Shown piece after piece: positions 1-53,384 of a DNA stretch of 57,878 bases. The notes beneath the pieces were generated by a model, which did no database searches, was not told the origin of the DNA, and was given only the letters and a program-made list of their open reading frames with translations. A program made the position numbers and the translations under genes. Source of the DNA: a virus (taxonomy: Duplodnaviria > Caudoviricetes). Each line of letters starts with the position of its first letter. Position 1 is the first letter of the stretch. The stretch spans positions 1 through 57,878 of IMG/VR virus record IMGVR_UViG_3300033149_000867. One strand, 5' to 3'.

Positions 1-41
1 TTGTCTGGTAATTATATTTTTGTAATTCAGACCAATACTTT
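1..41. repeat. 41-bp direct terminal repeat (left copy); circular or terminally redundant genome
   Basis: 1-41 equals 57838-57878 except G at 8 vs T at 57845; the polB reading frame continues across the join. Confidence 0.95.
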
Positions 42-3000
42 CGATTATTGTTTCGAACTTTTCGTCAATTGTTTTTTCAATCATTGTGTCCCAATCAATT
101 TCAAACCCATGTGGCAACTCATAGACATCATGATTTATACAAATTGCCCTATAAGGTCTCTTCAAATAAATTAGCAAAGGTTTTTCACAGCTCAAATCAA
201 ATTCAATACCAAGATGTTTTTTTGCCACCTTCACACCTTCCGTCCATACATTTCGATAACTGTCCGATAGAATTGCACGTGGTATCCCAATTTTTGGCAA
301 TGGTTGTTTCTTTATATTTTCTCTCACATCTCTTATAAATGTTGGCAAGGAATTGATTGACCCAGTAAGTATTTCAACAAACAATTTTTGCAACATCTCT
401 CTTGTGTATTCAGAGGCATCACTCCTCTTTGCCTCAAAACCCTTAACATATATTGAACCATCTTCCAATATCCCAGCATATCTCTTTTTGGCTGGTGTTC
501 CATCCTTTTTCCTCTTAAATAATATTGAAATAAACATTTTTTCAAATTTCACTTGTGGTGCAAAACCAAGTTTTTCTTTCAATTTTTTATTAATCAATCG
601 TTCCAATTTACGACATTCATCATAATTTTTCACACCTTTGACAAAAATACTATCTGTATTATGAACCAATATTCCGTTTGCGAAAAATCTGTGTGTTTCA
701 TCAACCTCAATATCATATACATAGTCGTTATATTCAATTTCCTCTATTTTCGTTGGTCTTATAATTATGTAGTCGTAGTCATAGAAATTACTTATTCTTT
801 TACCTTTAAGATGTCCAATCAATTTTTCATTTTGTCTCTTTTGAATGAACCCAATATTTTTCGCAAATTTCATTGTTTCCCTTACGGTGAGTTGATATGA
901 GTATGTTCCAGAGAATTTGCCATTAAACGAATTTTCAGTTGTTTCTTTCCAATAATTTGATGAAATACCAACAAAAGAGAGTAATTTGTGTGTTTTAATT
1001 ATGATGTCCTCATTTATGGATGTCAAACGTATCATCGGTCTATTTTTGTTTATGAGAACCGTTCCATCAGCACTAAACAAACCACGTAAGAATGATTTAA
1101 TGTTTTCTTCCGTTTCATATAACATGAAATCTGGGAATTTCTTTTTGAAATTTTCCATTACATCTTCTAACAAAATATCAACTAATTTACCACCCCAAAT
1201 CCTTATATCGCCATTTCTTGACTTCGATATATAATAACCAGTTATCCAATTACCACTTTTCAATTTTTCCAATAATTTGATGATTTCATCAACATCTTTC
1301 CCAGCACTTATATTGTAATGATATGGTCTCCCTCTCTGTCTTCTTTTTTCAGACCATGAATAAGAGCCATCACCAATAAATAGTCCCAAAAACTCATAAA
1401 CTTCCTTTGGATAATTTCTGCTGATAATTTTGTCTCTTGGTATTTTCTTCATATAAATCAAACTCTTTATTTTCTTTCCCAATTCAGTTGGTTTCACCTC
1501 AACCAATCTTTCATTATCTTTTAAATTTGGTGCAACACTCTTATTCAAATAACCAATTAAACTGTGGTCTTCCGTAATGTCAATATGCCTAACATTGCTT
1601 ATATGAACCCTATACATCTTTTTACCCTTTGGCTTATGTCTCATTATATATTTGATTTCTTTAAATGTTGAATTTCCATTTTTGTCAATCGTCAAAACAT
1701 CCAACCCACTAATTCTACAATACTGTTTTTCATCAATCGCATAATCAACTTTCTTAAACAAATCTTCAATATTCATTTCATAAATTTCCTTTGTCTTTCT
1801 ATTTTTCACAATTATTTTAGTTCCCTTTGCGACACTATCACCATAAACAACTTTGTAATTGGGATTTTCTTCTTCGACTATTTCTTTCATTGTGTTGATA
1901 ATCGACCTACCATATTCTGTTATTTTGGATGCAATGTCTTTTTTATACAATTTGAATTTTCTTGAACCAACGACACCATAAAACGAATTTGTCAAATATT
2001 TTATGACATTTCGTTTTAATTCATCTGTTTGTTTTGCTCTTTCATTTATCAATTTCTTTATTTCACGGAGAAAGACGCCCTCACGGTCAAGAGAGATGTT
2101 GTAGCCAACGATTATTGATGGATACATTGACTTTGCGTCGAATACTGCGACATTGTTGTGGATGCCAATTTCTGGCTCAAAGACAAATGCACCACGATAC
2201 CCCTTATCACTCACATGCTCGGCTTTGACCCGTCTTGGCATTGGTTTAATTCCACCGTATCTCAAAATATTTTCGACTACAACCGAAAAATAAACCACTT
2301 CCGTAATCTTTACACCACTTTTCAATCTCAAATACTCAAAGAAGTCAAACAAATCAAATTTTTCATCAATTAATTTCAGAGCTATTACATCATTCTTACA
2401 ATATTCAAAAAGTGTTTTGTAATTTTTTTGTTCCACCAATTCACCTATGAAAGCACCATAATCTTCATATTCAAAACCGACTACCGACTTTGCAACATAT
2501 TTTAATGAATAACTTGACAATTCGCCTCTACTCTCATACAATTTTCTGAACAATTCCATCATATCTGGTTTTTCGACACCATCAAGGAACTCATTACTTC
2601 CTCTAAATCTCGAAATTGTATTTTGGATTTGTTTGTAAATGCCAAGTTTTTTGGAACGATTTTCAAGATATGGAATATCGAACTTATTTGAATTCCAACC
2701 CGTAATGTAATCAAAAGTATTTGATACATATTTGCAAAAACTCAAAATCATTTCCTCTTCTGTTCTGAAACTCTTTATTTTCACTTTTTCGTCTTCCAAT
2801 TCGTCAAATTTGCCATGCAATGTCGTGAATATGATTATATTGTTGGTATAGTTATCGAGGATTTGTATTGTTATTATTGGGTTATTTGGGCGAGTAGCCG
2901 TTGGCAAACCCTCTGACAAAATTTCAATGTCGAAATATCCTATTCTTGGTTTATATGTTTCATCATATTCGTTAATTGGTTTTAAATCGCCATCATCTTT

Positions 3001-3327
3001 ATTATATTCAAACCAATACTTTATCTTCTTATCATATAGAAATCGTCTATCAAATGGTATATCACTATCAAATGTCATTTTGTATTTTTCTCTTTGTTCG
3101 GAAACTTCACCAGTTGTCTCAACAACAACCTTTGATATTTTATCGCCAAAACAACTCAAATATTCGCCATTCTCCTCATCTAAATAATAAAAATAGGGCT
3201 TGAAGCCCTTAATTATAAATATTTTTCCTTCATTTGTCTCGTGATTTCTTGCAAATATTTCAATTTTGTTTCCATCCAAACTCCTTGTGTCAATAACACA
3301 GTATAAATTATTCAGATTGACTGTCAT
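1..3327 (-). CDS. polB: Family B DNA polymerase with intein; continues across the join to TGA at 57814-57816 (about 1116 aa precursor, about 723 aa mature)
   Basis: Manual translation (absent from ORF track): start MTVNLNNLY after GGTGA SD; ExoI YFDIE, ExoII TGWNSNKFDIPY, ExoIII YCKND, motif A FDAKSMYPSII, motif B KYLTNSFYG, motif C YGD|intein|TDS, KKRY; C-terminal PIP box QKTLGDF. Confidence 0.96.
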   Translation of the reverse strand, partial: MTVNLNNLYCVIDTRSLDGNKIEIFARNHETNEGKIFIIKGFKPYFYYLDEENGEYLSCFGDKISKVVVETTGEVSEQREKYKMTFDSDIPFDRRFLYDKKIKYWFEYNKDDGDLKPINEYDETYKPRIGYFDIEILSEGLPTATRPNNPIITIQILDNYTNNIIIFTTLHGKFDELEDEKVKIKSFRTEEEMILSFCKYVSNTFDYITGWNSNKFDIPYLENRSKKLGIYKQIQNTISRFRGSNEFLDGVEKPDMMELFRKLYESRGELSSYSLKYVAKSVVGFEYEDYGAFIGELVEQKNYKTLFEYCKNDVIALKLIDEKFDLFDFFEYLRLKSGVKITEVVYFSVVVENILRYGGIKPMPRRVKAEHVSDKGYRGAFVFEPEIGIHNNVAVFDAKSMYPSIIVGYNISLDREGVFLREIKKLINERAKQTDELKRNVIKYLTNSFYGVVGSRKFKLYKKDIASKITEYGRSIINTMKEIVEEENPNYKVVYGDSVAKGTKIIVKNRKTKEIYEMNIEDLFKKVDYAIDEKQYCRISGLDVLTIDKNGNSTFKEIKYIMRHKPKGKKMYRVHISNVRHIDITEDHSLIGYLNKSVAPNLKDNERLVEVKPTELGKKIKSLIYMKKIPRDKIISRNYPKEVYEFLGLFIGDGSYSWSEKRRQRGRPYHYNISAGKDVDEIIKLLEKLKSGNWITGYYISKSRNGDIRIWGGKLVDILLEDVMENFKKKFPDFMLYETEENIKSFLRGLFSADGTVLINKNRPMIRLTSINEDIIIKTHKLLSFVGISSNYWKETTENSFNGKFSGTYSYQLTVRETMKFAKNIGFIQKRQNEKLIGHLKGKRISNFYDYDYIIIRPTKIEEIEYNDYVYDIEVDETHRFFANGILVHNTDSIFVKGVKNYDECRKLERLINKKLKEKLGFAPQVKFEKMFISILFKRKKDGTPAKKRYAGILEDGSIYVKGFEAKRSDASEYTREMLQKLFVEILTGSINSLPTFIRDVRENIKKQPLPKIGIPRAILSDSYRNVWTEGVKVAKKHLGIEFDLSCEKPLLIYLKRPYRAICINHDVYELPHGFEIDWDTMIEKTIDEKFETIIESIGLNYKNIITRQ
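658..1836 (-). mobile_element. Pol-c-site intein (393 aa) with LAGLIDADG homing endonuclease
   Basis: Inserted in YGD/TDS; begins SVAKGTKIIV, block B DITEDHSLI, LAGLIDADG motifs FLGLFIGDGS and FLRGLFSADG, ends YDIEVDETHRFFANGILVHN followed by Thr. Confidence 0.95.
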
Positions 3328-3640
3328 CCTTGTCATCACCGCCAACATCAATCAGTTCCTTTATCTTACAATAGCCAACACATTCACCATCATATTCCTG
3401 GAAAATCACCCTGAACCCATCGCCCAAAATGACTTCATCCTCTCTGACAATTTCGTTTCCATCGCCACAACGAACTACTGCCCTATCATCGTATATGTAA
3501 ATCCTCGAATTATTCACCCTGCCAAATTGCTCACTCATCTCCTTTGCAACTTCGACAAATTCACTCTTATTCGTTATCTTTGCCTTCTTTCTCCTTCCCA
3601 TAATTATTTCACCTCCTTTGTATTTATTGTGTATCACCAA
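3308..3640 (-). CDS. Hypothetical protein, paralog of 6197..6571
   Basis: Shares DR.V.RCG.GN and YDGEC..(Y/F)CK with 6197..6571; true start probably the internal Met after GGAGGTGA. Confidence 0.75.
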   Translation of the reverse strand: MVIHNKYKGGEIIMGRRKKAKITNKSEFVEVAKEMSEQFGRVNNSRIYIYDDRAVVRCGDGNEIVREDEVILGDGFRVIFQEYDGECVGYCKIKELIDVGGDDKDDSQSE

Positions 3641-5379: not shown

Positions 5380-5817
5380 TCACTTCAAAATACAATAAGT
5401 TTGTTCCACATATTCTTGAATTTTCATCTTTAAATCCATAATATCTTTTTCCCAATCTTCGGGCATTGGTAATTGCAAATTGTATTTTACACCAACACCC
5501 CCAAATACCAATGAAAAATCAACCCTTATATACTCACTAAATCGACCATCCATAAATTTCTTCGTTATCTTCAATTCATACTGATATATTGGTTCTGTTA
5601 ATACCACATCACTTATTGGTGATGCTCTACCAACCAATACTCCATACATTTTAATTTCATAATTCGACCTAAATGTTTTGTGTTCTTCATAATAATCAGA
5701 AAACTATTTCCACCAAAGGACAATTTCATCCATTAATTCACCAATTGTCTTATTTGTCCTTGCAAAATACAACATTTTTTCGTCATCTTTCAACCTACTG
5801 ATAACTTCTTCGCTCAT
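5380..5817 (-). CDS. Hypothetical protein with in-frame TAG at 5704-5706 (extends ORF 5380..5649)
   Basis: GGAGGTG SD then ATG at 5817; MSEEVISRL...LWWK*FSDYYEEH...MYGVLV is one frame. Confidence 0.7.
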
Positions 5818-5831
5818 CACACAACACCTCC

Positions 5832-6200
5832 TTAAACTCTTTCTATTGGCATAATTGGTAGTAATTCATCAAGTCTCTATTTCGTCCCCTCCAATAATCT
5901 TATAACACCATCATGTATTAGCAAATCATTTGTGTTTGAATAATAATACATCATAAATATTATTCTGTCCAAAATTAACCCAATCAAACTCAAAACATAT
6001 AAGTCATCATCTGACATTTTTTCAGACCAATATTTGCTCATCTACTTATTTCTAAATGTATATGAAATACGTTTCAATCTGACCACATCATTCATAATAT
6101 CTTCTTCATCAAGAAGTTTTGACAATTTACCCTCATTAACGTCTTTTTTAGACAAAATTTTTTCGAGTTTGTTAAGTAAATCTCTTATATTATTACTCAC
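5832..6200 (-). CDS. Hypothetical protein with two in-frame TAGs (6042-6044, 5877-5879)
   Basis: GGAGGTG SD, GTG start in a GTGA overlap with the upstream stop, ends TAA directly before the next SD; fills an otherwise empty gap. Confidence 0.7.
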
Positions 6201-11379: not shown

Positions 11380-12180
11380 TCACCTCCTTAACCTTTTACT
11401 ATATTTAGTTAATATAATTTCTTCCAATTCATCACAAGAATATCTTGGCGTAAATTTCCAATACTTGTAGTTATATTTATAATGTAAATCATGTTCAATT
11501 TGTTTAATTATTTTCCAAAATTTTGGTCTTTCTTCGATTATGAAACGATGACCATCCATTTTCTTCAATGGACAAATCCAACATGAAATTCTGTTTGTTT
11601 GCTCGTAAAGACCACCCCAATCAAAACCATATTTTTCCATACAATAATTCAGACAATCCTCTTCATTCATGTTATATTTTTCTATTAATGGTGCTCTATA
11701 TATAATTTCATTTTCTTTGTTTTTTCGACAAAAGTATTTTGTTCTCTTAATTTCATCAAGACTATAACCAATATAAATAAAAAATTTTGAATAACCTTTT
11801 TCTTTTCGTAATTTGGAATAAAATTGTTCAAATGGTGTAATTTTCAAATAATTTGAACACCATCTGTATTTGTAAGTTGGAAAACCATGAGGGCATCCAG
11901 CATATTTACCACATTTGTGTTTGTATTCCGTCATATAGTATATGAAATCTCCGTTTTTGTCATATATTCGTATAATTTCCAAATCATATTTGTCAATTAA
12001 TATGTCATCAACGTGTTTTATGTGTTGGTGCATTTCTGGGTATTCAACACCAGTATCAGCAAATACAATATATAAGTTGTTTTTGTTGATTTTATATTTG
12101 TCATCTTCTAACATTTTGAATAACATTGCTGTGCTATCTTTTCCACCACTAAACGAAATGACATGACAATTCTTACTCAT
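11380..12180 (-). CDS. PAPS-reductase-family PP-loop protein (DndC-like), possibly DNA modification
   Basis: SFSGGKDS PP-loop, FADTG.EYP, RWCS..LKI.P, GYSLDE..R, RISCWICP. Confidence 0.85.
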   Translation of the reverse strand: MSKNCHVISFSGGKDSTAMLFKMLEDDKYKINKNNLYIVFADTGVEYPEMHQHIKHVDDILIDKYDLEIIRIYDKNGDFIYYMTEYKHKCGKYAGCPHGFPTYKYRWCSNYLKITPFEQFYSKLRKEKGYSKFFIYIGYSLDEIKRTKYFCRKNKENEIIYRAPLIEKYNMNEEDCLNYCMEKYGFDWGGLYEQTNRISCWICPLKKMDGHRFIIEERPKFWKIIKQIEHDLHYKYNYKYWKFTPRYSCDELEEIILTKYSKRLRR

Positions 12181-12183
12181 AAT

Positions 12184-12813
12184 TTATCCTCTCATTAACC
12201 TTAACTTATAAATCCTTTCAGCCAATACAACATCTTTTTGATAAATATGACAACATGTTGTAAAATCTATTATTTTTGAAATTTCGAATTCTGGAATTTT
12301 GTGTCTTACAAAATGATAAAGACCGATGATATTGGGTTGCCATGCATTCACCAAATCACGACTTCTCCAAACCAATGCCAAAGTATTTGAATTGGGTAAA
12401 ATTTGAATGAATTGCAAACAAGGAATTCCACCATCACCATTTTCAATTGCATTGTCATCAACCAAATAATTCCATGTATTTAAAATCATTCGCCTTGAAT
12501 ACCCACCTTCTTTCAAATACAAATTCCTCACATTTTCAACATTTCTATTTAGTCTTTCACCATAAGTATAATCGAAACCATATTTATTTTCGCCCTTAAT
12601 TATTTGTGTAATATAATCGTCAATTGACTTGAATTGTGTTAAATAATGTGTTTCTTTATTTTCAATTTGTTTAATCGCCTTTCCTTCCAATACGACATAT
12701 AAAGTTGAATATTTATAGGAATTGTCATTGGCGAATTCACCAAATTTGTAAATATCGGCTATTGCCTTTTCATATGCTTCGTGAAAGTCATCTGACAGTA
12801 TTGTCATCAACAC
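12184..12813 (-). CDS. thyA: Archaeal-type thymidylate synthase or dUMP-modifying homolog
   Basis: YTYGERL, SRR, catalytic PCLQ, RSRD, AWQPN, HIY; start moved to GTG/TTG at 12813/12810 after GGAGATGA. Confidence 0.8.
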   Translation of the reverse strand: MLMTILSDDFHEAYEKAIADIYKFGEFANDNSYKYSTLYVVLEGKAIKQIENKETHYLTQFKSIDDYITQIIKGENKYGFDYTYGERLNRNVENVRNLYLKEGGYSRRMILNTWNYLVDDNAIENGDGGIPCLQFIQILPNSNTLALVWRSRDLVNAWQPNIIGLYHFVRHKIPEFEISKIIDFTTCCHIYQKDVVLAERIYKLRLMRG

Positions 12814-12844
12814 CTTATCATCTCCTTTGAGTAAGTAATGGAGG

Positions 12845-12952
12845 GGGTGTGATGCCAAAAAATTGAGAGTTGTTAAAGCCTTCAACACCTGCACAAATTA
12901 AATCTAATATCGTCAAATAATATGTTAGCCGAGAGGGTTTGACACCACACCC
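12845..12952 (-). ncRNA. Putative structured RNA (5' leader of thyA or small RNA)
   Basis: GGGUGUGGUGUCAAA pairs with UUUGGCAUCACACCC (15 bp, 2 G-U on the minus strand), enclosing two further hairpins; just downstream of a promoter motif. Confidence 0.5.
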
Positions 12953-13709: not shown

Positions 13710-13892
13710 TTAAAATTTAACACCACAAATTTCTTCAAATCTCTTTGCAAATCTCTTTCTAAATTTTTCATATTTTGGTCGAATTCCATCATAAAAATTA
13801 CCATCACCAATTTCACAAATAATATTGTGTATTTCGTCCAATAATTTGTAATTTCTTTTGTAAAAGTTTTTATGTTCTAAAAACATTGTCAA
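13710..13892 (-). CDS. Small hypothetical protein, or -1 frame C-terminal extension of the E2-like gene
   Basis: Frame is open up to 13946; TTG start at 13892. Confidence 0.5.
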   Translation of the reverse strand: MTMFLEHKNFYKRNYKLLDEIHNIICEIGDGNFYDGIRPKYEKFRKRFAKRFEEICGVKF

Positions 13893-13927
13893 ATCATAAG
13901 TTCCATCTGTGTTTTCATAAATCCTCT

Positions 13928-14773
13928 CTAAAATGCCATTTTTAAATCACTAATAAACATCCAAAATTGATAGTCAATTTCATTAACAGATTTTCGAATT
14001 TCTACTTCAATTTCATTATCATCATCATAATTTTTAGTATAAATGCAATCACCCGAAAGCAACTTTGTTATAATGTAATCATAATTGAAAAATATAAAGA
14101 GCCTCTTTGCATCAGTAAAACCATCATACAAATTTGCATATTTCAATATTTCATGTATGCCATTTATCAATTCATTTGAATTTTTATAAACTCTGTTTTT
14201 TCCAAGACAAACCATATTGAAAATTAATGGTCTCCCATGTGAAAGTATATGATAATCATATATTTTATATTTTGGATAATAATACATATTTGCCTCAATA
14301 TTTGGATGAATTGAATATGAACAATATAATTCATCAAATTCATTTGGGATAAAAAACAAATCTCTGTAAAAACCGTATGTTTTATTTTTCTTCATTTCAA
14401 TCATTAATTCTGGTGATAAAAGTGTGAATTCTGGTCTATAAACATTTACATCCAAAACAATTGGCAAATAAATGGTATTTTCACTTGTAATTCCACATCT
14501 ACAAAAATAATTATATGGTCGGCTATTATTTATCATTACACCATCATATCTCAATAAATTCAAAGTGAAATTGTTGTTGCCAAGTGTGTTGAAAACATCA
14601 ATTTCATTAGAAAAAAATAATGACGATGAATAATCAATATTGTTATTGTTGTTATTGTTATTGTCATCACCAGCGTCATATACTCTATATACATATTTAT
14701 CTACCAATTCACGATAAATTCTTGTCATAATGTAGTTTTTATCTTGTGAATTTCTCATCAATTTACCATTCAA
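13928..14773 (-). CDS. Prokaryotic E2-like (ubiquitin-conjugating fold) protein
   Basis: HPNI ... VCLG ... ILKYANL pattern; operonic with JAB and ThiF/E1; TTG start at 14773 after GGAGGTGG; ends at a TAG that may be read through to 13889. Confidence 0.6.
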   Translation of the reverse strand: MNGKLMRNSQDKNYIMTRIYRELVDKYVYRVYDAGDDNNNNNNNNIDYSSSLFFSNEIDVFNTLGNNNFTLNLLRYDGVMINNSRPYNYFCRCGITSENTIYLPIVLDVNVYRPEFTLLSPELMIEMKKNKTYGFYRDLFFIPNEFDELYCSYSIHPNIEANMYYYPKYKIYDYHILSHGRPLIFNMVCLGKNRVYKNSNELINGIHEILKYANLYDGFTDAKRLFIFFNYDYIITKLLSGDCIYTKNYDDDNEIEVEIRKSVNEIDYQFWMFISDLKMAF

Positions 14774-15498
14774 AATACCACCTCCCATCTTTCCCAAAAT
14801 TCCTTAACATTTCCTTTCTTATTTTTGTCAAATTTACCCAAATATTGTCTGTAAGTCTCTTTCTCAATTTTTTCTTCAACGATTTTCTCATCAACCAAAT
14901 TCAATTTCATTGGTATTACTTTTATTTTGGGCTCAATCAACATGTAATTGTCTGATAGATTGTTATTTACAATTCCTTCTTCATCAAGAATTTCATCCAA
15001 GAAATCATTTAAACATTCACCATTTTCTCTTTCAAAACCCAATTTCAATGGTATTAATAGTGTTGCCATAACAAATTTATTATCTGTGTATAAAATTGAA
15101 CACATAAAGTTTTTATTAATGAATTCATAATCAGTTCTCGAAAATTCATTAAATCCATGTGGATGTTTATGAATAACGGTATTATAACCTTCTGTAATAT
15201 ATTCGGTCGTTTCGCTATTATCATATCGAATGGTTGATGAAGAAACTTTTTGTTTTGGAATTACATAATCATTGACATCTACAATGAAATTACCATCCTC
15301 ATTGTATTTTCCTTTTAACAAAATTGAAAATTCAAAATCTTCACCGACAATCGATGAAATTTCCTCCATAACATATCTAATTTTTCCACCAATTACGACC
15401 GTTGGTTCTATTATATTGTAAATATTGTTAATTAAATCATGACCCTAAAATTTCAAACTATTGTTATTCTTATTTTTACTCTTCTTCTTCTTCGTCAT
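14770..15498 (-). CDS. JAB/MPN+ metallo-isopeptidase with in-frame TAG at codon 18 (15445-15447)
   Basis: EFSILLKG...YVIPKQKVS...VIHKHP....FSRTD (E, HxH, S..D JAB motif); GGAGGT SD 8 nt before ATG 15498. Confidence 0.8.
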
Positions 15499-16837
15499 TT
15501 TCTAAAACCTCCTTGTTTAGATTGTAAATCCAAGAACCACATATTTTCTCAAATATTGTTGAAATATTGAAATTCACAACAAATTTTGGTAGAATTTCAT
15601 ATACATAAGAAAATCTAATAGTATCATCGATTTTATCAGCCATTGTGTTATAAAACACATCATCAATAATTGTTCTTATGAATGTGTAATCTAAAATCAC
15701 CAAATATGTTATTAAAAGAGCTGAAAACATTGCACCAAAAATCGATGAACCCTGTGTATAACCACGAATAACCCCATCATCAACCGTCATCATTGTATAA
15801 TCTTCAAAACCTCTTTGAATTGTTATGTTATGCCCATCATATCTCACCCTATAATATACGACATTGTATTCCTTAAATTTCTCTTTAAAATACTTCATTT
15901 CTTCATTGTTATTAGTAATTTCGTTGCTATCTCTACAATCAATCATAATCAACGGAGAACCCTTTGATTTGTAAAATTTATCACAAAGTAAATTATGTGC
16001 CGTTTCTTCAAATGTTCTGAAATTAAAACTAACTGCCAATTTTTTCAAATTTATATCTGGTCTAATAAGTTCAATTTTTCTTGAAATTGCAACAACCTTA
16101 CAATCATTTACATCATTCAAATCATAAATTGTTCTACCAACATTTGATATTTCAACATTATCACCATCAACCAAATACAAATTATTTGCACCAATTGATG
16201 CCAAAATGTATGAAACCCATGAACCAATCCCCCCACAACCAATAACCATAAAGCTCTCTGGAACTCTCATCTCAATTTCCTCATAATTTTCTTTTCTCAA
16301 CATTTTTTCAACCACATCAATGAACTTATCATAGTCATAACCAGCCGATATTGAACGTGCAATGCCGTCCAAACCCAATTCTGAAATATCTACATATTCT
16401 TCATTTTCCTCATAATTTCTATTGTCTGGTGTAATTGTATTTAGAATTTCATCCAAATCGCTTTCATTATCATCATTTACATTTCTCTCATTTCTATTTT
16501 TAAATATACCATCCATCAAAAACCCAATATATTCAACCTTAATACCTTTCATTCTATTTTTGTAAATTTGTTTGTAAAAATCCATCAAATATTCAACACC
16601 AGCTTCATTATAACTGTTAATTTCAACTTCAAGAACATCATCCAACGAATATGGGTATTTATTAACCGTGAGATATTCAACCTCACCATTACTCTTAATA
16701 ACCTTAACATAAGCATTATTCAATCCAATTCTTTTAGCAATTTTCTTCACATCTTCATGTTCAATTTTCTTCTTTTCTTCAAAATATCTTGCAATAAGTG
16801 AATAAGACTTTTTACCAACCTTTACTTCCAACCCCAC
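15476..16837 (-). CDS. Ubiquitin-like domain fused to a ThiF/E1-family adenylyltransferase
   Basis: GCGGIGSW, LVDGDNVEISNVGR, KV.A, IDCRD; the first ~80 aa have a beta-grasp-like pattern ending YNEAG. Confidence 0.8.
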   Translation of the reverse strand: MGLEVKVGKKSYSLIARYFEEKKKIEHEDVKKIAKRIGLNNAYVKVIKSNGEVEYLTVNKYPYSLDDVLEVEINSYNEAGVEYLMDFYKQIYKNRMKGIKVEYIGFLMDGIFKNRNERNVNDDNESDLDEILNTITPDNRNYEENEEYVDISELGLDGIARSISAGYDYDKFIDVVEKMLRKENYEEIEMRVPESFMVIGCGGIGSWVSYILASIGANNLYLVDGDNVEISNVGRTIYDLNDVNDCKVVAISRKIELIRPDINLKKLAVSFNFRTFEETAHNLLCDKFYKSKGSPLIMIDCRDSNEITNNNEEMKYFKEKFKEYNVVYYRVRYDGHNITIQRGFEDYTMMTVDDGVIRGYTQGSSIFGAMFSALLITYLVILDYTFIRTIIDDVFYNTMADKIDDTIRFSYVYEILPKFVVNFNISTIFEKICGSWIYNLNKEVLENDEEEEE

Positions 16838-16857: not shown

Positions 16858-18102
16858 TTATTCAAAAATAGACAATTTCAAATCAATGTATTTTGCAAAA
16901 TCGAAATATAAATCTAAATCAAAATGCTCAACACCAACGTTATCATTGAACTTAAACAAATTTTCAACATTAAAATCTTTTTTCAATTTACTGTAAAATT
17001 CAAGATTTAATATTTCATTTGGGTCATTGTTATATGTCTTTAAAAATTTGTCAATTGCCTCACAATCATTTCTCACATCTTCATTCATATTTTCGCCACC
17101 AAACATAAAGTTATAATAGAAACCTTCATTTGACATTTCGTAATCAAAATAATTGAAATTCTTTACTATTCCCCATCCATCAATAATTTCGAGCCCATTC
17201 TCATAAATTTCAATAGAAACCCTCGCACCATTTGGAACACAATCTCTCTCACAATATCTTTTGATAAATTTGTTAATTTTCTTTGCCAAATTCTTATGTT
17301 TAAACAATTCATACAATCTCAATGTCGTGTATTGTGCCAAATAACCGTTGAATAAACCACGCTTCCCATCTATTATGTAATCCGTATAATTCATAATCTT
17401 TGGGCATAAAATATATTTGAAATATCCGTTTTCTTTATCTAATGTCGAAAAAACATCAAAAGAAAATATATTGTCAGATACCATTCTTTTTAAATGAGTT
17501 TCATTCAATTTGTAAGTTTCCCAAATACCAATCGGTGAAATACCAAAAACACCACCCGTAATTTTTCTCATTATTTCTTCTTTAAAGAAGAATTTATCAA
17601 ATTCACCATTTTTAATTTTTCTTTTGACATCACTTGTAAATAAACTATCGATATATGAATTAATAACATTTTCACCGCTTTCAGTTTCATGTTGCATCAA
17701 TGTTCTTGAATATTTAAACCCACCAATAGTCCCAACAAACATCCCAACAAATGCCCTATTATAATTGTTATCATCTCTAAAACCAATTATTGGGTTGAAA
17801 ACCCTATACAATTTTTGAACCGAATAACCACCATCAATCTCATTTATCAATATATGTTGTTCCTCTATTTTATCTGGAATTGTAAATGTATCTTTATATT
17901 TCATTTCTTTGTTATAATCTGAAATTTTCTTCTCTAACAAATTAAACAATTTATAATATACATAATTGGTTGTAAAACCTCTATATTTTGAACATTCGAC
18001 AAAATATGGTGCATATATCATTTTCAAATTCTTTTTAATTTCCTCCTCAATCAGATAATCAATTTTTTGTTCTATACTTTTAAATTTCATATTTATCACC
18101 AC
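16858..18102 (-). CDS. Hypothetical 414-aa protein directly upstream of the Ubl operon
   Basis: Long ORF; no motif recognised. Confidence 0.8.
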   Translation of the reverse strand: MVINMKFKSIEQKIDYLIEEEIKKNLKMIYAPYFVECSKYRGFTTNYVYYKLFNLLEKKISDYNKEMKYKDTFTIPDKIEEQHILINEIDGGYSVQKLYRVFNPIIGFRDDNNYNRAFVGMFVGTIGGFKYSRTLMQHETESGENVINSYIDSLFTSDVKRKIKNGEFDKFFFKEEIMRKITGGVFGISPIGIWETYKLNETHLKRMVSDNIFSFDVFSTLDKENGYFKYILCPKIMNYTDYIIDGKRGLFNGYLAQYTTLRLYELFKHKNLAKKINKFIKRYCERDCVPNGARVSIEIYENGLEIIDGWGIVKNFNYFDYEMSNEGFYYNFMFGGENMNEDVRNDCEAIDKFLKTYNNDPNEILNLEFYSKLKKDFNVENLFKFNDNVGVEHFDLDLYFDFAKYIDLKLSIFE

Positions 18103-18568
18103 CCTTAATAATCACACAACCATTTTCTTTAATTTCCTTTCCAATTTCGTTATTGTGTTCTATTCTGTAAAATTCTGGTCTCTTTTTCTTCATAATTTCA
18201 TTGACTTCATCTTCATTCATTTTTGTTTTGTTAATGAAAAGCTCAAACCCGACAACAGGGAACTTAATCATCCTATTCAATCTGAAATTTAATGCAAGAC
18301 CAAATTTACAATCATAATCTTGTATTCTATAAATTATCGTTGCACCACATTCTGGACAAATACCAATTGAATTTCCAACATCAATACTTCTTTTCAAAAT
18401 GTGCAATTTACTCAAAATAACTTTATTATCATAACAAAATGGACAAACTCCATATTTCATAGGTTCAACAAATATTTCATCTGGTTCATTTTCCCAAATA
18501 ATAATTTGATTTTCTTCACTCAAAATATTGAAATGGTCAAGAACCTTATAAAATTCACTAAATTTCAT
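18080..18568 (-). CDS. Zn-ribbon-containing protein
   Basis: CPFC...CPECG; ATGA overlap, SD GGAGG. Confidence 0.75.
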   Translation of the reverse strand: MKFSEFYKVLDHFNILSEENQIIIWENEPDEIFVEPMKYGVCPFCYDNKVILSKLHILKRSIDVGNSIGICPECGATIIYRIQDYDCKFGLALNFRLNRMIKFPVVGFELFINKTKMNEDEVNEIMKKKRPEFYRIEHNNEIGKEIKENGCVIIKGGDKYEI

Positions 18569-19014
18569 ACTAAAACCTCCTTATCATCATAAACCAAATT
18601 CACATAACCTTCATGAATAAAAACAGATATTTTAAGAGTTTTATTTCCAACCTCAATTTCCTTTGTGTTTCTCTTTCCACATGTTGTTATCAATCTCACA
18701 CCCAATTTGTTTTTAATCACATAGAAAACAAGAGAGCCAATAATTCTTGGTTCTCCCATAATACAAATCACATCATTCTCATCAATTTTATATTTCTTGA
18801 AAATTCTATCCCAATATTCATACGGGCTAATTATATCATTTTCATATATCACACCCTTAACATTGAGAATTGGATGTCTAATTTTCACAATATCGTTAAT
18901 CTTTCCTCTAATCTCTTCCAATTGTTCTTGATTAATTTCATGATTGCTAATCCAAAACAATCTATTAAATTTAGAATTTTCATCAAAAACTTTCCAAACT
19001 TCCTTTTTACTCAC
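18565..19014 (-). CDS. Csx20-like CARF-fold protein, candidate ring nuclease (anti type III CRISPR)
   Basis: SNHEINQEQ, ICIMGEP, TTCGKRNTKE, KISVFIHEGY resemble the Csx20 pattern as I recall it; GTG start 19014 after GGAGGTGG. Confidence 0.6.
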   Translation of the reverse strand: MSKKEVWKVFDENSKFNRLFWISNHEINQEQLEEIRGKINDIVKIRHPILNVKGVIYENDIISPYEYWDRIFKKYKIDENDVICIMGEPRIIGSLVFYVIKNKLGVRLITTCGKRNTKEIEVGNKTLKISVFIHEGYVNLVYDDKEVLV

Positions 19015-19048
19015 TTTCCCACCTCCTTTTTCCAAAGAAAAATCAAAT

Positions 19049-19732
19049 TCAAATAAACATGTAATTGTCATCGTCAAATTTACTGTTGTTATTTGTTTTA
19101 CCAATCCCATAAATATCATTCAAAGAAATTGCATTGTCCAACATATCATTCAAAATGAAATGAAGAAGACAAGTCATTGAATAAATTGCGACAATTCCAT
19201 GTTTATATTCAGTCTCATCTTTTGTAATTCTCTTTAAAAACCTATGAATTTTGTCCCTTACAATCGTGAAACATTTCAAATTTTCTTTATATTCGCTATC
19301 GTTAATCGTTATAACCAAATTTGAAACAAATCCAACAACAGCCTCAAATATATCTTCATTTACCAATGTTTCTGATGAATAATTTGTGTAAAATAGTTTG
19401 CCATGCATCATGTCATTTTTACATTTATAAATGCCCAACATTGAAATATCGCCAACCACATTAAAAGCACTTGTAATTCTCTTTAATCCAGCTTGTAATA
19501 TTATCATCGTTATTAGAAATCTAAATTTAAATTCGTTTTCATCCGTAATATTTTCGTCAAAAACATAAAGGGCAAAATCAGATGCAATTCCGTTATATGT
19601 TTTATATGAATTTCCAATTTTCATAACATCGTCCAAAACCCTTCTAATCGTTTCTTTATCAATTTCAACATATCGTTTTTTAATTGTTTCATAAATCAAA
19701 TCAATTGTCTGTTCTCTTTCATTCGTATTCAT
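19049..19732 (-). CDS. Hypothetical helical protein
   Basis: 227-aa ORF, ATGA overlap, SD GAGGTGA. Confidence 0.75.
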   Translation of the reverse strand: MNTNEREQTIDLIYETIKKRYVEIDKETIRRVLDDVMKIGNSYKTYNGIASDFALYVFDENITDENEFKFRFLITMIILQAGLKRITSAFNVVGDISMLGIYKCKNDMMHGKLFYTNYSSETLVNEDIFEAVVGFVSNLVITINDSEYKENLKCFTIVRDKIHRFLKRITKDETEYKHGIVAIYSMTCLLHFILNDMLDNAISLNDIYGIGKTNNNSKFDDDNYMFI

Positions 19733-21803: not shown

Positions 21804-22220
21804 TTATAACCCCTCCCAAAAGAAATCCTTTTCCCAACCTTTTTCTTCATCATATACATTAATCAATCCAGCATGAATTCCTTTTGTGATTTCAACATTA
21901 TTTACTGCAATTATTAATTCACATTCACCATATCCGTCCATTCCTATCTTAAAAATCCCTTCAATATACAAATTAATTAGAGAAGAAATTGAATATTTGC
22001 CCATAAAATAAGTTCTATATAAATAGAATTCATCTAAATAATCCTAACTAACATAATTTATCTTTTCTCCATCTTCATCCTCTTCATATTCAATCCACTC
22101 ATATTCTTTTGACATATTGACATCATATATTAATTTAAATCTATCAATCATTTTATCCATCTTTTCTCTTAAAATATCACGAATATCATCAATATGGCAA
22201 TATTTTACATTGCCTCCCAT
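21804..22220 (-). CDS. Hypothetical protein with in-frame TAG at 22044-22046; paralog of 22205..22579
   Basis: ORFs 22044..22235 and 21804..22004 are the same frame, separated by one TAG and 13 sense codons; the intact neighbour aligns to both halves. Confidence 0.8.
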
Positions 22221-25661: not shown

Positions 25662-25944
25662 CTTTATCATCTCCGTTCCCATTTTTCACAATTATATCTT
25701 TGAAATTATATGGCAAATTAATCTTATTTTCATTTTCATCTTCATCACCCAAAATAACACTATAAATTTCATCAAAAAATTCTTCCTTAATTTCGAATAA
25801 TTCCTCAAATGTTATGTTATCATAAATTTCTTGCTCTCTCAATTTATTTTCAAATGTTTCAAATAACCAATTAACCGCATCCTCAAATGTGTTAAAAATA
25901 TTTTGAATTCTGAATTTTTCAAGGTTAGTCATTTTATTTCTCAC
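25654..25944 (-). CDS. Hypothetical acidic protein
   Basis: ORF track; SD GAGGTGA. Confidence 0.7.
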   Translation of the reverse strand: MRNKMTNLEKFRIQNIFNTFEDAVNWLFETFENKLREQEIYDNITFEELFEIKEEFFDEIYSVILGDEDENENKINLPYNFKDIIVKNGNGDDKDD

Positions 25945-26213
25945 TTTCTCACCTCACTTTCAAAAAATTCAATATTAATCATCACCCAAATGTTATTATT
26001 TAATGAATTCCACACTTCAATTTCAAATCTAAATTTAGAATTTTCACCAAATAGCTAAATCCCATCCACAGTATGTTTATAATTTACAAATTTCATATTA
26101 TCTTTCAAATTTACATTAATTTCACTTTCAACAAATTTATTAATTTTTTCAAACCATTTATCATAATTTTCATCAAATTTACCTAAATTTATTAATTTTG
26201 AAAAGGAAGACAT
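25941..26213 (-). CDS. Hypothetical protein with in-frame TAG at 26055-26057
   Basis: GGAGGTGG SD, MSSFSK...TVDGI*LFGENSK...EVRK; final TGA forms a GTGA overlap with the next start. Confidence 0.7.
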
Positions 26214-50883: not shown

Positions 50884-51486
50884 TCAAATGAGTTTAGACC
50901 AAATTTTCAACTTTTCAATCTCCAAACATAAGTTTAAACTAATTTCGTATGGTATCAAACTACGGAGAGCCTTCCTCATTGGTGATGGTGGCAGTTTCCA
51001 TTTACCATAACATTTTTTATTATCGCATTTAAATTTTGGAAAATTGCCCCACAAATAACGACTTCCACATTTCTGCCTGTATTCACCAAAAACTGGATTG
51101 AGATATTTAACAGCACCACGAACATTTTCAACAACCCATATATGTGGTTCAAGCATATCTATGGCATCTTTTGTAGCATAAACAAGTTCCATTGCCCCAT
51201 CAATATCAACTTCATCTTTACCATACCAGGGCATACTGTCCTTGCTGAATTCATCACATGGTGGAGATGCAAGAATGACATCAAAATGTGTTTTCTTTAA
51301 TGGTAATTTTCTAACATCTGCTTGAATTGTTGGTTTAAACATTCTATCAATATCAATTGTTATAACTTCATGTCCTCTCTCAACAAATGCTTTACTAAAA
51401 CCACCCAAGCCAGAAAATAAATCAAGAACTTTCAATGTTGTATTTACTCCGTGATTTGCTGTCATATCTTTACACCCCATCAACAC
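50884..51486 (-). CDS. Short DNA (cytosine-5) methyltransferase
   Basis: LDLFSGLGG (motif I), ASPPC (IV), VENV (VI). Confidence 0.85.
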   Translation of the reverse strand: MLMGCKDMTANHGVNTTLKVLDLFSGLGGFSKAFVERGHEVITIDIDRMFKPTIQADVRKLPLKKTHFDVILASPPCDEFSKDSMPWYGKDEVDIDGAMELVYATKDAIDMLEPHIWVVENVRGAVKYLNPVFGEYRQKCGSRYLWGNFPKFKCDNKKCYGKWKLPPSPMRKALRSLIPYEISLNLCLEIEKLKIWSKLI

Positions 51487-53115: not shown

Positions 53116-53384
53116 AAATTACCACCTCTTTTTCTGAAAACCATATCATCTGGAAGTTTTGCAATGCATTGAAATATCTAAATTTTTTCATCTTCATTGG
53201 CATATTTATACATCCGTAGCAAATACATCAAATTAGAGATATGTTTCCCAACATAATTTAACAATTTACTATCACGAATTTCTAATTTTTCTTCGATAAA
53301 GGCGTCATTTGACATCAATATCAAAGAACATTCTGAAATTGCATTTAAAATATCATCAATACTGTATTTATTCACTTTCACCAT
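53112..53384 (-). CDS. Hypothetical protein with in-frame TAG at 53178-53180
   Basis: Read-through adds IFQCIAKLPDDMVFRKRGGNL and ends in an ATGA overlap with the 53115 start. Confidence 0.7.

Follow-up and report, generated by a model that had tools for sequence, protein, structure and literature searches.

In-frame TAG codons in a virus genome with a Ubl-E1-JAB cassette: a case for translation of the amber codon

Is a TAG codon near the beginning of a viral peptidase gene translated, and if so, what reads it? The question arises in the IMG/VR record IMGVR_UViG_3300033149_000867 (Duplodnaviria; Caudoviricetes), where the minus strand carries a gene for a JAB/JAMM peptidase directly downstream of a gene for an E1-like (ThiF) protein with an N-terminal ubiquitin-like (Ubl) segment. 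The window analysed here is the whole record, a single contig of 57,878 nt. An interpretation made previously from the letters of this DNA (the sequence-only reading) placed the start of the peptidase gene upstream of an in-frame TAG, and proposed that release of the Ubl, and with it the whole conjugation pathway, depends on amber read-through. The elements of the locus are the following.

15507-15514, minus strand: Shine-Dalgarno (SD) sequence AAGGAGGT, as read in the sequence, inside the 3' end of the E1 gene and 8 nt upstream of ATG 15498
14770-15498, minus strand: proposed full-length JAB/JAMM peptidase gene, 242 codons, with TAG as codon 18 and TGA at 14770-14772
15448-15498, minus strand: Lys-rich leader of 17 codons, MTKKKKSKNKNNNSLKF; basic leaders of similar length occur in homologues
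15445-15447, minus strand: in-frame amber codon (TAG) of the JAB gene, as read in the sequence
15370-15444, minus strand: 25 codons between TAG and the called ATG, assigned to strand beta-1 (TVVIG) and the first half of helix alpha-1 by AlphaFold, homologues and coding score
14770-15369, minus strand: 199-amino-acid open reading frame (ORF) called with genetic code 11, containing the catalytic Glu and HKHPHGFNEFSRTD (invariant E, H, H, S and D columns)

The JAB gene on both sides of its amber codon

On direct reading of the minus strand, AAGGAGGT occupies positions 15514-15507, including GGAGGT at 15512-15507, and is separated by an 8-nt spacer from ATG 15498-15496. This ATG is followed by 17 codons (MTKKKKSKNKNNNSLKF) and the in-frame TAG at 15447-15445. 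Another 25 codons (GHDLINNIYNIIEPTVVIGGKIRYV) lead in the same frame to the called ATG at 15369-15367, which opens the 199-amino-acid ORF terminating at TGA 14770-14772. The E1 ORF terminates at TAA 15478-15476 and is overlapped by the JAB leader by 23 nt. The coordinates and translation given by the sequence-only reading for the SD sequence and ATG 15498, at the overlap with the E1 end, were thus exact, and the leader, the TAG and the extension were found in frame with the annotated ORF just as it had described.

An 8-nt match to the anti-SD sequence precedes only 0.5% of 2,590 background ATGs; ATG 15498 has one, and ATG 15369 has no SD sequence. The 25 codons following the TAG scored +0.45 bits per codon in the JAB frame, compared with -1.46 and -1.17 in the other two frames. 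The coding score of the 17-codon leader was weak (+0.11 per codon). The leader-TAG-ORF arrangement exceeds what is expected by chance because the 8-nt SD sequence, the in-frame coding score and the homologue alignments extending into the 25 codons all coincide. A non-canonical start immediately after the TAG was also considered and rejected: there is no in-frame ATG, GTG or TTG between 15444 and 15370, and no SD sequence.

When the 224 post-TAG residues were used in a full HMMER search, 580 proteins were returned at E <= 1e-3, and 115 of the 149 listed non-self matches (counted by hand) begin their alignment inside the first 25 of these residues. The catalytic E, H, H, S and D did not vary in two alignments, one of 30 and one of 116 sequences, and a conserved N-terminal block with the consensus WDSGL..I..P.I.IP aligned to the post-TAG stretch. 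Many homologues open with Lys/Arg-rich leaders of 10-30 residues resembling the 17 pre-TAG codons, while others begin within one or two residues of the TAG position. The N-terminus was unbroken, often with a Lys/Arg-rich leader, in all ten related loci (seven on viral contigs, three on contigs of metagenome-assembled genomes, MAGs). The sequence-only reading had named the N-termini of homologues as a check on its proposal; not one of the 29 aligned homologues, and none of the ten related loci, starts at the position of ATG 15369. The TAG itself falls in a variable linker of the family alignment.

The 199-amino-acid ORF contains HKHPHGFNEFSRTD and an upstream Glu (EFS). These match the JAMM motif, a Glu followed by HxH, seven residues, S, two residues and D. 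An AlphaFold model, built with the 116-sequence alignment and numbered from the first post-TAG residue, had a mean predicted local distance difference test (pLDDT) score of 82.5, with values of 93-98 over residues 11-130. Strand 1 was formed by residues 15-19 (TVVIG) and helix 1 by residues 21-33, which places Met26, encoded by ATG 15369, in the middle of the helix. The MPN fold is complete only with the 25 pre-ATG codons. Alignments and model together support assigning the first strand of the JAB/JAMM domain, and half of its first helix, to the codons upstream of ATG 15369. The proposal that this segment is the first JAB strand, lost from a protein starting at ATG 15369, was therefore borne out, and structure prediction with the extension put strand 1, together with half of helix 1, before that Met. 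Since a start at ATG 15369 would truncate the fold, production of the full-length enzyme would require the TAG to be read.

Foldseek comparison of the model with the PDB gave 174 matches at E <= 1e-3, led by JAMM deubiquitinases; AMSH/Sst2, proteasome or COP9 chains scored between 4e-7 and 1e-5, and chain 8tyx_B, from a bacterial Ubl-deubiquitinase complex, was found at E 1.3e-5. Sequence profiles were much less responsive. Neither the short nor the long form of the protein matched a Pfam family at E <= 0.1, no PHROG match was obtained, the match to the PADLOC JAB model was weak (0.0055), and the sole match in a PDB profile search was a 19-residue stretch around the motif at E 0.9. By sequence comparison the protein belongs to a distinct, mostly viral and metagenomic JAMM family of 580 members. 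With JAMM/MPN+ deubiquitinases such as BilC (PDB 8tyx) and Cap3 of CBASS it shares the E...HxHx7Sx2D motif and the MPN fold, and, as in the BilC and Cap3 systems, it adjoins an E1, whose closest models in the defence library are CBASS E1-E2. Eukaryotic Rpn11, AMSH and CSN5 are further relatives. The protein differs from these deubiquitinases in giving no Pfam JAB match, in being virus-borne, in having a basic leader and in adjoining a Ubl that ends in ...EAG/...EAK rather than GG.

In-frame TAG codons in the rest of the genome

The last 41 bases of the contig (57838-57878) repeat the first 41 (1-41) with one mismatch, so the contig is circular or terminally redundant, with a length of about 57.8 kb. 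The GC content is 31%. A structural module, with a terminase distantly like phage terminases, is transcribed rightward between 29.3 and 50.7 kb; the remainder is a long leftward set of genes, including those for a ribonucleotide reductase, an ERCC4-HhH nuclease, a PD-(D/E)XK nuclease and others. Crude gene calling, in which ORFs of at least 50 amino acids on the expected strand were accepted, gave 83 ORFs, 42 ending in TAA, 35 in TGA and 6 in TAG. When the genome was read again with TAG open, about nine candidate in-frame TAGs were found, all on the leftward arms, i.e. in non-structural genes. The sites are 15447 (the JAB codon), 5706, 6044, 5879, 13930, 22046, 26057, 53180 and 56989. At about 9 in about 19,000 codons they are very sparse, and the plus-strand structural module (about 6,900 codons) contains none. 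No interruption of comparable kind by TAA or TGA was seen in the genome. The sites other than that in the JAB gene are these.

5704-5706, minus strand: second strong in-frame TAG; ATG 5817 with the SD sequence AAGGAGGT, 37 codons, TAG, 107 codons, TGA 5380
22044-22046, minus strand: TAG linking ORF 22220-22047 to ORF 22004-21804 through 13 open codons; ATG 22004 has no SD sequence
26055-26057, minus strand: TAG with a 37-codon read-through and a 4-nt overlap with the next start, 25944 (reach test, coding score)
53178-53180, minus strand: TAG with a 21-codon read-through and a 4-nt overlap with the next start, 53115 (reach test, coding score)
13928-13930, minus strand: TAG ending the 289-amino-acid gene just downstream of the JAB gene; 12 further codons, 4-nt overlap with the ORF start at 13892, neutral coding score (+0.02)
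6042-6044, minus strand: TAG directly before the in-frame, SD-less ATG 6041; ambiguous, a fusion or two genes
5877-5879, minus strand: TAG with an open extension of 14 codons; ambiguous, coding score +0.72 per codon
56987-56989, minus strand: weak candidate; ATG 57022 (no SD sequence), 11 codons, TAG, 66 codons

The gene starting at 5817 copies the layout of the JAB gene: AAGGAGGT, 8 nt and ATG, with 18 start-less codons between the TAG and the SD-less ATG 5649. The ATGs that follow a TAG lacked an SD sequence in all four cases (15369, 5649, 6041 and 22004), whereas an SD match of at least 5 nt was present in 41 of the 53 long genes, as against 7.4% of background ATGs.

In a reach test, genes followed by a gap of 25-399 nt were scored for whether reading through the stop codon reaches the start of the next gene. 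Four of the five TAG-ended genes did so, against none of the 21 genes ended by TAA or TGA. Three of the four (13930, 26057 and 53180) end in a 4-nt start/stop overlap, which was the commonest single distance among the gene junctions tallied here; at the fourth (22046), read-through fuses the gene in frame to the following ORF. In the ten related loci, which served as control, read-through reached the next start in 0 of 3 TAG-ended and 7 of 46 TAA/TGA-ended genes. Coding scores gave a similar picture. All eight post-TAG segments scored above zero in the upstream frame, six of them at +0.22 to +0.72 bits per codon, and all 16 control gaps after TAA or TGA scored negative. Stop-free off-frame windows had a mean of -0.07 (standard deviation about 0.2), and only 1-3% of them reached +0.4. 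Reading through produced a large out-of-frame overlap (>60 nt) at none of the nine sites.

The nine TAGs have no sequence context in common, and neither a fold resembling a pyrrolysine insertion sequence (PYLIS) nor another stable downstream fold was general among them, since z was below -2 at only one of the nine. The absence of a common context and of a common fold argues against a systematic sequencing error linked to a motif. At the exceptional site, the 110 nt beginning at TAG 13930 (13821-13930, minus strand) fold with greater stability than any of 200 shuffles (z = -2.66). Two broader statistics added little: whole-genome ORF totals under alternative codes were uninformative, and an initial two-sided scan with the codon score was too unspecific.

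Candidate decoders and competing explanations

No tRNA gene was found in the whole genome (0 genes with ARAGORN, 0 Rfam matches at E <= 1), and therefore a decoder of TAG must be cellular. To our knowledge, the pyrrolysine system is the only cellular TAG decoder among prokaryotes. It appears rather probable that TAG is translated genome-wide in this virus. The explanation that we favour would be as follows. The JAB gene would run from ATG 15498 to TGA 14770 with its codon 18 translated; TAG would act throughout as a rare sense codon, with termination by TAA and TGA; and the host cell would supply the decoder, most plausibly the pyrrolysyl-tRNA of an archaeon like those using Genetic Code 34, which would read any TAG without a special signal. 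Taken as a whole we give this explanation slightly better than even chances. That the residue inserted at TAG is pyrrolysine is a possible but somewhat doubtful part of it. Decoding by a PylRS/tRNA-CUA pair, which the sequence-only reading had suggested for an expression experiment, would fit the pattern.

According to the literature, archaea with the pyrrolysine (Pyl) system need no special signal to read TAG, whether the reading is ambiguous or complete ('Genetic Code 34'), internal TAGs accumulate in their ordinary genes, and the absence of large out-of-frame read-through overlaps marks reassignment (bioRxiv 10.1101/2024.09.30.615893; PMC12626013; PMC4153887). The genome described here resembles the archaeal genes of that preprint in that TAG is rare and lies within otherwise intact genes or gives rise to extensions, short overlaps and fusions (bioRxiv 10.1101/2024.09.30.615893). 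It resembles them further in the lack of large out-of-frame overlaps and of a required downstream signal (0/9 sites with such an overlap, 1/9 with a stable fold). In two-sided homology the JAB gene follows the Code 34 pattern in part: homology is strong after the TAG, and before it there is only a basic leader typical of the family. The differences from Code 34 archaea are that this is the genome of a virus and not of a cell and that its TAGs are confined to non-structural genes.

Sequence relationships give a hint, not proof, of an archaeal host. Among collected phages the best matches of the DNA polymerase were haloarchaeal tailed viruses (26% identity, 8e-29), the best bacteriophage following at 5e-14, and an Atlas look-up of the ERCC4 nuclease returned mixed viral and archaeal clusters. 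A search for the terminase in 401 sampled genomes of one archaeal phylum, and in 3 of a second phylum, found none. One coherent picture would be a tailed virus infecting a Code 34-like archaeon of hydrothermal or marine sediment, with pyrrolysine in its early and middle proteins, the peptidase of the virus-borne Ubl-E1 system among them, with expression of those genes and host range tied to the pyrrolysine supply of the host and with TAG-free structural genes, but as a complete scenario it is rather unlikely and is offered tentatively. As a guess, the structural genes may be free of TAG because a codon that is read inefficiently would be selected against where expression is high.

Several observations weigh against the favoured explanation. 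No pyl gene or other TAG decoder was seen anywhere, and PylS was above the cut-off in none of the three MAGs that hold related JAB loci and were checked for it, although these MAGs need not be hosts. The assignment to archaea leans on weak similarity. Homologue support exists for the JAB TAG only; the other TAG-bearing ORFs are small, have no relatives and matched no Pfam or PHROG family at E <= 0.01, and the case for those eight TAGs is statistical and depends on crude gene calls, with neutral or weak coding scores at 13930 and 56989. Because the JAB TAG lies in a variable linker, the residue at this position cannot be read from the family. A structural module without TAG in some 6,900 codons, set against about nine TAGs elsewhere, is not explained by simple reassignment. 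Finally, the public runs leave the JAB TAG neither confirmed nor refuted: only two were listed, with a small share each and no RNA data set among them, and their contigs were those of relatives about 90% alike. One such contig, of 151 nt, spans 15320-15468, and 10 of its 13 differences are near its ends.

If the TAG were a one-off nonsense mutation or a consensus error, the JAB gene would be broken or weakly expressed from ATG 15369, and the other TAGs would be coincidences in small, doubtful ORFs. This is unlikely, even though all ten related loci lack a stop at the JAB position, which shows that the TAG is derived, and the contig is metagenomic and has no close relative for comparison. The 224 codons after the TAG are intact and encode all catalytic residues; the interruptions are always TAG and never TAA or TGA, despite TAA being the easier mutation at 31% GC; and both the outcome of the reach test and the recurrence of the SD pattern at 5817/5649 would have to be accidental. 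Very improbable, in our judgement, is a TAG acting as a true stop after a 17-amino-acid leader peptide, with re-initiation at ATG 15369 and a 199-amino-acid protein functioning without strand 1. Every catalytic residue does lie downstream of ATG 15369, and gene callers picked the 199-amino-acid ORF; but the protein sequence of the 25 codons in between is conserved and these codons show coding bias, a confident model puts the Met midway along helix 1, ATG 15369 is 75 nt from the stop and has no SD sequence, and no homologue, aligned or in the ten loci, begins there. Translation of TAG is the more economical reading, since random decay would mostly have given TAA at this base composition, a single error would not recur nine times, and re-initiation fails to explain a conserved, coding-biased sequence between TAG and ATG.

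A genome-wide pattern of in-frame TAGs fits equally well with recoding of the kind known from phages (code 15 or similar), in which TAG would stand for glutamine or another standard residue by means of a suppressor tRNA that went undetected or was provided by the host or a co-infecting element. Code 15 phages such as crAss-like and Lak phages are likewise viruses with in-frame TAGs, low GC and rare TAG, in which standard gene calling splits or truncates genes (bioRxiv 10.1101/2021.08.26.457843; see also PMC9523058). Borges et al. (bioRxiv 10.1101/2021.08.26.457843) could detect a TAG suppressor tRNA in only 40% of TAG-recoded phages, and because of this low share the missing viral tRNA does not exclude membership in this group. 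A cold-seep virome also contained predicted TAG-recoded viruses whose recoded genes belonged mostly to replication and repair (10.1101/2023.03.12.532262). This second set shares with the present genome the environmental sediment setting and the type of gene affected; it differs in that the recoding was predicted block-wise by Mgcod, with many events per genome. Such recoding is nevertheless an improbable explanation here. The genome is circular and apparently complete and carries neither a tRNA nor a tRNA-like RNA, its TAG density is very low, and known recoded phages (bioRxiv 10.1101/2021.08.26.457843) place recoded stops in structural and lysis genes. Code 15 phages thus have many recoded genes, structural and lysis genes among them, and often a suppressor tRNA, whereas this genome has some nine TAGs, none of them structural, and no tRNA.

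Translation of TAG by a host-supplied decoder also bears on the proposed dependence of the Ubl pathway on amber read-through. The part of that proposal that stood is the need for the TAG to be read if the full-length enzyme is to be made. There is no support for a mechanism peculiar to the JAB gene or the Ubl pathway, i.e. a JAB-specific amber switch, because about eight further TAGs in unrelated genes behave alike.

The Ubl-E1-JAB cassette and its genomic setting

The adenylation domain of the E1 adjoins the JAB gene, and the same pairing is found in the related loci L002 and L004. Upstream of the JAB gene the cassette comprises the following.

15476-16837, minus strand: E1-like (ThiF) protein, 453 amino acids, with an N-terminal Ubl-like segment (Pfam ThiF 2.4e-17; best PADLOC E1-E2 match 4.2e-13)
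16598-16837, minus strand: residues 1-80 of the E1 protein, Ubl-like segment ending in ...SYNEAG (alignment with six free-standing small ORFs)

The E1 is 33% identical to that of L004 (E = 6e-10). Its residues 1-80 align over their full length with free-standing small ORFs located beside the E1/JAB genes of L002, L004, L006, L008, L009 and L010. These six Ubl-like ORFs end in YDEAG, YYEAK or YNAAK with 0-2 further residues, whereas the Ubl-like segment of the window runs on into the E1 domain as a fusion. Across the cassettes the Ubl-like proteins thus end in Y-x-(E/A)-A-(K/G) with 0-2 extra residues, and not in Gly-Gly. A fold model of the segment had a pLDDT of 63 and no Foldseek match at E <= 1e-3. 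Because the E1 N-terminus aligns with free-standing Ubl genes, a peptidase is plausibly needed to free the Ubl, and from sequence comparison the JAB peptidase plausibly frees or trims this putative Ubl. In the proposed mechanism the full-length peptidase, with its complete MPN fold, would cut at the ...YNEAG end of the E1-fused segment, the presumed substrate.

No E2 was identified in the window: the 414-amino-acid neighbour (16858-18102) has no family in Pfam, PHROG or PADLOC, and it showed no BLASTP similarity to the 366-amino-acid protein at the matching place in L004. In the relatives a large protein encoded between E1 and JAB (L004 4867-5967, plus strand; L002 3358-4869, plus strand) contains a stretch HPN...C-I-G that, by eye, resembles the active site of E2 proteins. 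A 184-amino-acid protein encoded two genes upstream of the E1 (18565-19119, minus strand) gave a PADLOC match to Csx20 (2.1e-7), a CRISPR-associated family and an unexpected neighbour for a viral Ubl cassette.

The DNA polymerase gene is located at the left end of the contig.

1-3351, minus strand: family-B DNA polymerase split by an intein that carries a LAGLIDADG domain (Pfam Intein_splicing 1.8e-16, LAGLIDADG_3 4e-11)

The polymerase ORF leaves the left end and should continue at the right end of the contig. Close relatives of the genome were found neither by blastn against phages nor among JGI metagenome contigs nor in IMG/VR with the terminase, and a word search of 5.8 billion proteins with the JAB protein, the 145-amino-acid TAG-containing gene and the E1 returned only the virus itself and one E1 with 33% identity. 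A C-5 cytosine methyltransferase ORF of 200 amino acids (50884-51486, minus strand) covers only positions 1-116 of the 324 of the Pfam model and may be split or truncated. Genes for a thymidylate-synthase-like and a PAPS-reductase-like protein are adjacent at 11380-12894 (minus strand), and the TAG-containing ORF 25941-26213 (minus strand) gave a very weak match (E 0.086) to a kinase of 5-hydroxymethyldeoxyuridine (5-hmdU) DNA. Together, the thymidylate-synthase-like, PAPS-reductase-like and 5-hmdU kinase matches are a hint of DNA base modification.

In practical terms, gene calling with code 11 costs the peptidase a core strand and leaves several other genes of this virus split or shortened. 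TAG is confined here to non-structural genes, the reverse of what recoded phages show, and this confinement needs explaining. In the main text of the Code 34 preprint the word 'virus' never occurs (bioRxiv 10.1101/2024.09.30.615893), and a search of the accessible literature for viruses of Pyl hosts that carry in-frame amber codons found only the block-wise cold-seep prediction (10.1101/2023.03.12.532262). The searchable pyrrolysine and Code 34 literature treats cells. The virus-borne Ubl-E1-JAB cassette, with its Ubl fused to the E1, offers a tractable system for ubiquitin-like conjugation in viruses. If TAG is indeed translated, the early programme of the virus would be completed only in a cell that decodes TAG, which would be a hard constraint on host range and at the same time a clue to the host; in the tentative scenario of an archaeal virus with pyrrolysine-containing proteins, profiles of in-frame TAGs could provide a marker, obtainable from sequence only, for linking uncultured viruses to TAG-decoding hosts.

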